In this document: piece after piece, positions 12,853 through 13,395 of the stretch | Layout: the number at the start of each line of letters is the position of its first letter | Numbering within the stretch: the first letter of the stretch is position 1 | The notes under the pieces: model-generated | Databases searched by the model: none | Seen by the model: only the letters and a program-made list of their open reading frames with translations | Told to the model about the DNA's origin: nothing | Program-made: the position numbers and the translations under genes | UHGV virus genome: UHGV-1730466 | DNA from: a virus | Reading direction: 5' to 3' (one strand) | DNA: 14,875 nucleotides

Positions 12853-13395
12853 TCAGCCTCGTTTAAAGCTCATTACGCGCGGTACATACGCTTCTTTTGA
12901 TTTCGGCTTACGTTTGCCTTTCTTCGCAGGTTTTTCTTCTTCCTTCGGCTGTTCTGCCTGTTCTAATGCCTGCTCAACGACTTCAGCCGCCTGCATTGCC
13001 GCTACCTGTGCTTCGTTTGATTCTGCCAGGATAGGGAAAAATGCATCAAAGATGCGGCCCACCATGTAAGCGTAAGTCTCATTCGCCGGATGAGTTGGAT
13101 CAGTGGTCGCCACGACGCCTACATCACTTAAAACGTGAAATGTCGTGTGCGCCGCTTCATGTACCAGCGTTCCTAACTCATTGTCGAATACTGCGATCAC
13201 GTAGAAGTTACCGCCTTTCTCACCAGTGCAAGTAAGCGTCAATCCTCCTGCCAGTTCGAAATCAGGCTCAATTGGAATTCCTGCCTTTTCGCAAAATTCA
13301 TAAAACATCTCGCGGGTCGGGCAAAAGAAAACGGTTGTATGCTCAAAGAGCGGGACTTTGAATTGAGGCAACTTAATGCCTTTAGCCTTAGCCAT
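12853..13395 (-). CDS. Hypothetical protein with HExxH motif and Lys-rich C-terminal tail, 180 aa
   Basis: LVHEAAHTTFH contains a zinc-metallopeptidase-like HExxH; C-terminus EQPKEEEKPAKKGKRKPKSKE is strongly basic; GGAG SD at good spacing. Confidence 0.55.
   Translation of the reverse strand: MAKAKGIKLPQFKVPLFEHTTVFFCPTREMFYEFCEKAGIPIEPDFELAGGLTLTCTGEKGGNFYVIAVFDNELGTLVHEAAHTTFHVLSDVGVVATTDPTHPANETYAYMVGRIFDAFFPILAESNEAQVAAMQAAEVVEQALEQAEQPKEEEKPAKKGKRKPKSKEAYVPRVMSFKRG

Follow-up and report, generated by a model that had tools for sequence, protein, structure and literature searches.

A gluzincin-like signature in PHROG 1365, a family of small phage proteins that includes a gene beside the packaging genes of an mEp021-like coliphage

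In peptidases of the gluzincin type two histidine ligands and the glutamate acting as general base lie on one helix and a glutamate ligand lies on the next, giving a sequence pattern in which (N)ExxxY comes about 20-25 residues after HExxH. The joining of a basic region to a zincin domain recalls DNA-dependent proteases such as SprT, Spartan and Wss1. Zincin-like MPTase domains are found within the polyvalent proteins of phages and plasmids, including the C-terminal domain of ArdC (Iyer et al. 2017, PMC5512222). For the hkcC gene of phages P22 and HK620 the literature lists the function only as unknown (PMC2629481, PMC4837284). Here we describe a homologue of HkcC encoded in UHGV virus genome UHGV-1730466. 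The stretch analysed, hereafter the window, comprises 14,875 nucleotides (nt) and represents the late region of a temperate coliphage or prophage of the mEp021-like ('mEpimmI') kind with Escherichia coli as the host group, 87-92% identical in DNA sequence to MagusPhagus, mEp044, mEp554 and mEp021. A sequence-only reading of the window had located an HExxH protein at 12853-13395 without giving a strand; there is an open reading frame (ORF) of exactly this extent, on the minus strand, and we shall call it the zincin-like gene (Table 1). The segment LVHEAAHTTFH and the lysine-rich run to which that reading drew attention are found at residues 77-87 and 156-168 (PAKKGKRKPKSKE) of its product. It is probable that the gene encodes a cytoplasmic, stand-alone, minimal gluzincin-like metallopeptidase of ~125 residues, which would most likely be a dispensable accessory and not an enzyme of head maturation.

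The window protein belongs to PHROG 1365. It matches the profile phrog_1365 (unknown function) with E 4.6e-30, where protein residues 1-131 align with profile positions 3-124 of 127, and the same profile is matched by HkcC, Orf129, gp18 of an N4-like phage and a T7-like homologue with E values between 1e-20 and 1e-45. When a query of 128 amino acids (aa) was compared with annotated phages by tblastn, the identity was 97% to mEp021 gp49, about 45% to Orf129 of ST64T/L and gp70 of epsilon34, and 35% to P22/HK620 HkcC. HkcC, Orf129 and gp70 are true homologues of the window protein, with which they have both the HExxH...(N)ExxxY signature and the PHROG in common, and further members of PHROG 1365 are the products of small genes in N4-like (Gamaleyavirus) and T7-like (Autographiviridae) phages. 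A family profile was built on the N-terminal 128 residues and searched against 1.84 billion representatives with a cut-off of E<=1e-3. It matched 227 proteins, nearly all of them stand-alone and about 105-135 aa in length.

Searched against Pfam, NCBIfam, PADLOC and the sequences of the PDB, the window protein returned only a chance match of its tail to DUF5817 (E 0.2) and one to uridine phosphorylase (E 1.4), and no PADLOC model was matched at E<=1 by the window protein, HkcC, Orf129 or N4-like gp18. A search of the literature on hkcC, phrog_1365 and HExxH anti-defence proteases yielded only mentions of hkcC as unknown in genome annotations, and gp49 goes unmentioned in the mEpimmI paper and its supplements. 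The putative zincin nature of PHROG 1365 is so far visible only in automatic labels on metagenomic records, and it is otherwise an unnamed cluster of hypothetical proteins. The P22 record BK000583 has an hkcC homologue at 13861-14226 on the plus strand (3001-3366 of our locus L003) that carries no coding-sequence annotation, the divergent sieA promoter being the only feature annotated there. The P22 hkcC ORF is intact and is 100% identical to HK620 HkcC (PMC4837284).

The zincin-like gene is real and is under strong purifying selection. Compared with the mEp021 and MagusPhagus orthologues, the ratio of non-synonymous to synonymous polymorphism (pN/pS) is 0.02-0.06 over residues 1-130 and rises to 0.15-0.27 over residues 131-180, and the C-terminal tail is thus also constrained. 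Proteins of 97-99% identity are encoded by mEp021-like phages and E. coli prophages. Near homologues of 93-99% identity occur in many E. coli prophages and are present in 29 of 5,426 complete E. coli genomes, every one of them chromosomal and annotated as 'hypothetical protein'.

In a sequence of this length and composition ~0.015 HExxH motifs would be expected by chance. When the family was clustered at 50% identity, 144 of the 148 representatives had the motif. Of the other four, two are fragments or frameshifted sequences, one is a repetitive false positive and one has HKAAH instead. Alignments of 135-140 sequences with 21-65% identity have G51, H79, E80 and H83 as their invariant columns. 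Downstream of these come E106, Y110 and N105, with conservation of 99%, 98% and 64%, respectively, among 135 sequences, and the E106 and Y110 columns played no part in selecting the sequences for this count. The spacing from histidine to glutamate is 19-27 residues across 174 representatives. Read from the alignments, the signature of PHROG 1365 is of the gluzincin type, HExxH-x(19-27)-(N)ExxxY. The metzincins, a candidate raised by the sequence-only reading, were rejected. The extended motif HExxHxxGxxH is absent from the window protein, whose HEAAHTTFHVL lacks both the glycine at +3 and the histidine at +6. The histidine that is present at position 87 is not conserved in the family, the commonest residue in that column being phenylalanine at 21%.

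AlphaFold2 models were calculated with the family alignment. The full-length model has a predicted local distance difference test score (pLDDT) of 89.9 and a predicted template modelling score (pTM) of 0.77, and a model of residues 1-130 has values of 92.9 and 0.86, respectively. The modelled elements are strands 11-13 and 21-25, helix 28-38, a short helix 44-48, strands 51-57 and 63-69, helix 74-92 and, following a loop, a long helix from 103/106. HEAAH lies inside helix 74-92, and E106 lies at the start of the long helix that follows. The order of elements, beta-alpha-beta-beta-alpha(HExxH)-alpha(Glu), fits the zincin core as described previously (PMC5512222), where it is the order that was compared and not a three-dimensional superposition. 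If the protein operates as the model suggests, H79 and H83 on the active-site helix together with E106 at the beginning of the next would hold a single Zn2+ ion, E80 would activate a water molecule, and the substrate cleft would be lined by Y110 and by G51, the invariant residue with which strand 51-57 begins.

Comparison with solved structures placed eight zincins in the top 60, where unrelated proteins score equally high; they include CapP, IrrE/PprI, the minimal zincin 3e11, two M32 carboxypeptidases, an IgA peptidase and a collagenase. A Foldseek search of the PDB with the full-length model gave nothing significant, the best matches being macrodomains and Pol lambda with E about 0.1. Profile matches to PDB sequences are weak, led by myroilysin (E 0.017) and followed by an M35 peptidase and a tolloid-like protein. 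Below the Pfam threshold, SprT-like (PF10263) is matched by 38 of 138 members with a best E of 1e-4, making SprT the nearest Pfam model in sequence space, and the other matches of this kind are mostly to zincins (M50B, DUF4344, DA1, astacin, M48 and reprolysin). All family matches to SprT are below threshold. Two members carry the source labels 'PolyVal Metallopeptidase' and 'SprT-like', which we treat as leads and not as tests. No sequence relationship was detected to the minigluzincins (proabylysin and projannalysin) or to minimal zincins such as PDB 3e11. From sequence and model together, our reading is that the window protein may be a divergent minimal zincin outside every curated family.

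There is an architectural likeness to MPTase-PolyVal and the C-terminal domain of ArdC. These have a small phage-borne zincin core built of a three-stranded sheet and two C-terminal helices, of which the first carries HExxH and the second a glutamate, and the window protein would be built likewise. The homologue P0118 (62% identical to the window protein) bears the source name 'PolyVal Metallopeptidase superfamily domain'. However, the window protein stands alone and is not a domain of a multidomain polyvalent protein, and the Pfam MPTase-PolyVal model was matched by none of 138 family members at E<=5. Nor does the mEp021 annotation give any sign that the protein is delivered along with the DNA. 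A repressor protease of the ImmA/IrrE (M78) type was also considered and rejected, since there is no M78 signal and no Xre-type repressor in the neighbourhood. The idea of a zinc-metallopeptidase-like fold gains from the helix-borne HExxH, the glutamate helix and the zincin order of elements, but the protein does not qualify as a member of the SprT-like, ImmA/M78 or metzincin families, which had been named as folds to test for.

Beyond the catalytic domain the mEp021-like proteins continue into an acidic helical linker and a basic tail. HkcC, Orf129 and gp70, in contrast, are 105-135 aa in length and lack both the acidic helix and the lysine-rich tail. A long C-terminal extension of any kind is present in only 5 of 174 family representatives (about 3%), and we therefore regard the tail as a clade-specific module added to a self-sufficient domain. 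The length of the linker differs between alleles, with a 14-aa insertion in mEp021 and others. Within the mEp021-like clade the lysine patch and the terminal [AL]-[YL]-V-P-R-V-M-S-F-K-R-G are retained, VPRVMSFKRG in relatives down to 62% identity, and K159, K161 and K165 are invariant in the clade alignment. The homologue P0121, which is 52% identical, terminates in EEYVPRIARYKRG, including YVPRIARYKRG, and a second variant of the tail, found in P0113, P0114 and P0117, ends in KYIIAGQSRYAMG.

In the full-length model the tail has a pLDDT of about 69-78 and is without regular secondary structure, which is compatible with a docking peptide and proves nothing. Membrane insertion is unlikely because there is no hydrophobic segment, and with no signal peptide either, a secreted or membrane protein was ruled out. 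In the mEp021-like clade the tail would most likely serve in tethering or regulation. Its binding partner could be a polyanion such as DNA, another protein, or the acidic domain itself, onto which the tail would fold back. Autoinhibition as in the minigluzincins might be invoked here, which we take as an analogy only. We also take the terminal VMSFKRG to bear a loose likeness to encapsulin cargo-loading peptides, and have given this no weight.

In lambdoid phages, accessory genes are classically found at the junction between Rz and the terminase genes. Homologues of the zincin-like gene lie 0-3.5 kb upstream of terminase genes in 10 of about 14 distinct contexts, and the gene is directly upstream of a small terminase (TerS) of three families (PF20901/Sf6-type, phrog_1206 and phrog_309). 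Besides the terminase, no neighbour is conserved across the contexts compared. The genes for ST64T/L Orf129 and epsilon34 gp70 occupy the same Rz-to-terminase slot with dec in between. The position of hkcC is different. It is found in the variable 'ant moron' of P22 and HK620, adjoining the superinfection-exclusion gene sieA, and not before the terminase. This region is described as having no function in morphogenesis or lysis (PMC2629481). Some P22-like phages have two copies of the family, and its occurrence among related phages is sporadic. In the N4-like and T7-like lytic phages the homologue lies among the early or middle genes.

A tail-bearing homologue, P0167, is encoded by a gene that is translationally coupled to a gene for a Tad2-like protein (PF11195, Thoeris anti-defence), whose stop codon it overlaps, at 4729-5570 of our locus L019 in contig ERR11479738_22560. 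The same block contains two ParB_N genes, an ABC-type ATPase and a thioredoxin, and lies upstream of the terminase. It may be an anti-defence island. In mEp021, the label of virion structural protein, given to genes following mass spectrometry of virions, is not attached to gp49 (mEp021 annotation; PMC11893012). Of the candidate roles that had been suggested for the gene from the sequence, a head-processing protease fits the contexts less well than an accessory role directed at the host or at its defences.

The analysis shows that the gene is real and constrained, that it belongs to the family with its conserved motif, that the predicted topology fits and that the contexts are as described; that the protein binds zinc and cuts peptide bonds, what its tail does and what kind of target it has are inferred. 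Lying between the cassettes for lysis and for packaging, the gene would be expressed as part of the late operon, and the protease would act on a protein of the host or of a competitor, in the manner of a 'moron' or host-takeover function. We favour a dispensable protease directed at host or competitor because of the moron slot, the duplicate copies, the early placement in lytic phages, the Tad2-like neighbour and the absence of a virion label. Given that the protein is a protease, such a role is a serious possibility that falls somewhat short of probable. A broader proposal is more doubtful, and we offer it tentatively: PHROG 1365 might constitute an unrecognised class of minimal (~120-aa) phage zinc proteases that serve as host-takeover or anti-defence weapons, expressed early in the lytic N4- and T7-like phages and carried in moron slots in the P22- and mEp021-like phages, each cutting a specific protein of the host or of a rival phage, with the enzyme of the mEp021 clade tethered or gated by its basic C-terminal peptide.

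Several observations weigh against the reading as an accessory metallopeptidase. Neither Pfam nor NCBIfam has a model that the window protein or the family matches at threshold. An hhalign comparison with a SprT alignment of 17 sequences gave a probability of 9%, with the glycine strand and HExxH in register; this SprT profile is of low diversity, all its sequences being >=74% identical. A comparison with a single SprT sequence gave 4.8% and aligned an irrelevant segment. The Tad2-like gene is absent from the sister locus of P0167, and the adjacency is therefore seen at one locus only. It is not obvious that one role would suit both a gene expressed late in temperate phages and one placed early in lytic phages. 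Finally, the frequent location just upstream of the terminase genes could reflect a function linked to packaging and not a hot spot for morons.

Packaging is the main rival explanation, and we judge it unlikely. The protease would cut the scaffold, the portal, a MuF-like protein or the terminase, or would clear proteins from the DNA to be packaged, and its tail would direct it to the procapsid, the terminase or DNA. The gene is indeed located between 0 and two genes upstream of TerS of three families in unrelated head modules, its position in the late operon is suitable, and the tail, which is under purifying selection, is present both in the window protein and in P0121, each of which adjoins an Sf6-type TerS. 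Yet the P22/HK620 paralogue is encoded away from the assembly cluster, where the surrounding region is reported to play no part in morphogenesis (PMC2629481), and the early or middle location in N4-like and T7-like phages, together with the sporadic and sometimes duplicated occurrence of the family, is not what such a function would lead us to expect. Nor does gp49 of mEp021 carry a virion label, and about 97% of the family has no tail. A smaller likelihood attaches to maturation or degradation of the six tiny single-helix membrane peptides that are encoded directly downstream, and we consider this very improbable. The first of these mini-ORFs starts 2 nt past the stop codon of the zincin-like gene, and mEp021 has the same array and MagusPhagus an enlarged one, but the array is absent beside the P22-like, N4-like, T7-like and metagenomic homologues. 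Moreover, the gene for the tail-bearing P0121 abuts TerS directly without an array, and no leader-like or cleavage motifs were seen in the peptides.

The basic tail invites a different comparison, with proteases of the SprT/Spartan/Wss1 kind that are activated by DNA. The lysine-rich tail would bind DNA and thereby switch on or position the zincin, which would cut nucleoid proteins, restriction or defence complexes, or repressors. SprT-like is the commonest Pfam family among the sub-threshold matches, one member has been named 'SprT-like' at source, the glycine strand and HExxH are in register, and the tail has a net charge of +10. On the other hand the hhalign probability is low and the window protein itself has no Pfam SprT match. 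The SprT alignment has a conserved H95 and CxC...CxxC, whereas the window protein has glutamate as its putative third ligand, in place of the histidine of SprT, and a tail without cysteine pairs. It lacks a zinc ribbon, and most members of the family have no basic tail. We regard DNA activation as unlikely, slightly more so than a function in packaging. There is also the question of whether the protein is a protease at all, for the HExxH scaffold could belong to another metal-dependent enzyme, or to a non-catalytic binder or inhibitor with a structural metal. This would fit the finding that no characterised peptidase family or structure was matched significantly, and two members weakly match a model for an HExxH peptide hydroxylase (E 0.0045). 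But the full gluzincin signature of base glutamate, third-ligand glutamate and tyrosine has been kept, as is typical of active peptidases, the base is substituted in just 1 of 148 representatives (HKAAH), and the weak matches are overwhelmingly to peptidases. We judge a scaffold without protease activity improbable, though less so than a processing role for the mini-peptides.

Coordinates of the features discussed are collected in Table 1. All genes of the late region lie on the minus strand in the order lysozyme fragment, HNH/AP2 gene, Rz, spacer, zincin-like gene, mini-ORFs, TerS, HNH gene, large terminase (TerL), portal, MuF-like gene and other head genes. This agrees with the initial description of the gene as lying upstream of the packaging genes, since TerS, the HNH gene, TerL and portal are all downstream of it, and Rz is upstream.

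Table 1. Features of the zincin-like gene and its surroundings in the window.
Feature	Position	Strand	Basis or remark
Zincin-like gene, complete; 180 aa + stop, ATG start	12853-13395	minus	ORF list; orthologue of mEp021 gp49
Predicted catalytic domain, residues 1-125, net charge -8	13021-13395	minus	AlphaFold2; sole part common to whole family
HEAAH, residues 79-83	13147-13161	minus	sequence reading; H79 and H83 putative zinc ligands, E80 putative general base
NETYAY, residues 105-110	13066-13083	minus	E106 putative third zinc ligand, Y110 putative catalytic/cleft residue
Acidic helical linker, residues 126-154, net charge -7	12934-13020	minus	model helix 106-148; continues Glu helix
Basic tail, residues 155-180, net charge +10: Lys patch KPAKKGKRKPKSK, then terminal peptide E-A-Y-V-P-R-V-M-S-F-K-R-G	12856-12933	minus	
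Shine-Dalgarno AGGAG, 9 nt 5' of ATG	13405-13409	minus	sequence reading; kept in MagusPhagus
HNH/AP2 gene	14138-14644	minus	
Rz with embedded Rz1	13664-14134	minus	
Non-coding spacer between Rz and zincin-like gene, 268 nt	13396-13663		
Terminator-like hairpin then U-run, inside Rz/zincin spacer, tentative	13454-13504	minus	RNA fold
Six mini-ORFs, 22-31 aa	12761-12850, 12663-12758, 12575-12649, 12483-12563, 12418-12486, 12325-12408 (span 12325-12850)	minus	between zincin-like gene and TerS
Sf6-type small terminase	11814-12314	minus	PF20901, E 7.8e-37
HNH gene	11298-11801	minus	
Large terminase	9827-11314	minus	
Portal	8378-9769	minus	
MuF-like head protein	6529-8436	minus	
285-aa ORF antisense to probable intein part of MuF-like gene	6715-7572	plus	weak REase_MTES_1575 match, E 2e-4, below threshold

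The spacer between Rz and the zincin-like gene is conserved among mEp021-like phages as much as, or more than, the flanking coding DNA, and in mEp021 it carries a 58-nt insertion. The tentative hairpin within it is conserved in mEp021 and MagusPhagus and corresponds in position to 'TERM_6' of the mEp021 annotation; a scan with a simple terminator consensus did not call it. As this hairpin lies between Rz and the zincin-like gene and is conserved in relatives, expression of the gene probably requires antiterminated late transcription. A structured RNA in the spacer was ruled out by the lack of an Rfam match and of unusual folding beyond the hairpin. When the 268 nt were folded, the upstream half was worse than shuffled sequences (z +1.6), and the downstream half (z -1.6) contained the terminator-like hairpin only.

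Each of the mini-ORFs encodes approximately one hydrophobic, transmembrane-like helix, and several look paralogous, with M-x-x-x-D/E-F/L followed by ~18 hydrophobic residues. There are six such ORFs in mEp021 and about twelve in MagusPhagus, and a 100-bp piece over the first is 82-84% identical in the rV5-like myophages FV3 and ECP2303. The 635-aa product of the MuF-like gene has an insertion of ~320 aa (residues 274-593) that is absent from mEp021 gp53, with flanks that are 90-95% identical. The insertion starts with a cysteine and ends in ...ASN, with a cysteine next, and because it matches the Pfam intein splicing domain it is probably an intein in a head-assembly protein. The antisense ORF opposite may be a free-standing endonuclease or may be spurious. 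The two HNH genes, one between TerS and TerL and the other between the lysozyme and Rz, are paralogous and of the homing-endonuclease type (HNH_3, plus an AP2-like domain), and mEp021 and MagusPhagus lack both of these insertions at the corresponding positions.

The outcome is a well-supported improvement in annotation, with nothing that is mechanistically unprecedented. PHROG 1365 is present in P22, HK620, phage L, epsilon34 and the N4-like and T7-like phages, and has neither a Pfam or NCBIfam model nor a structure or published function. Given that its genes lie in accessory and early regions, the family could reasonably be included in screens for host-takeover or anti-defence functions. The acidic helix and basic tail of the E. 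coli clade may provide a handle on the targeting or latency of a minimal protease. If the protein is an active protease, this would give a function to a long-standing 'unknown' gene of classic phages, and would add a very small zincin scaffold to the proteases of phages.
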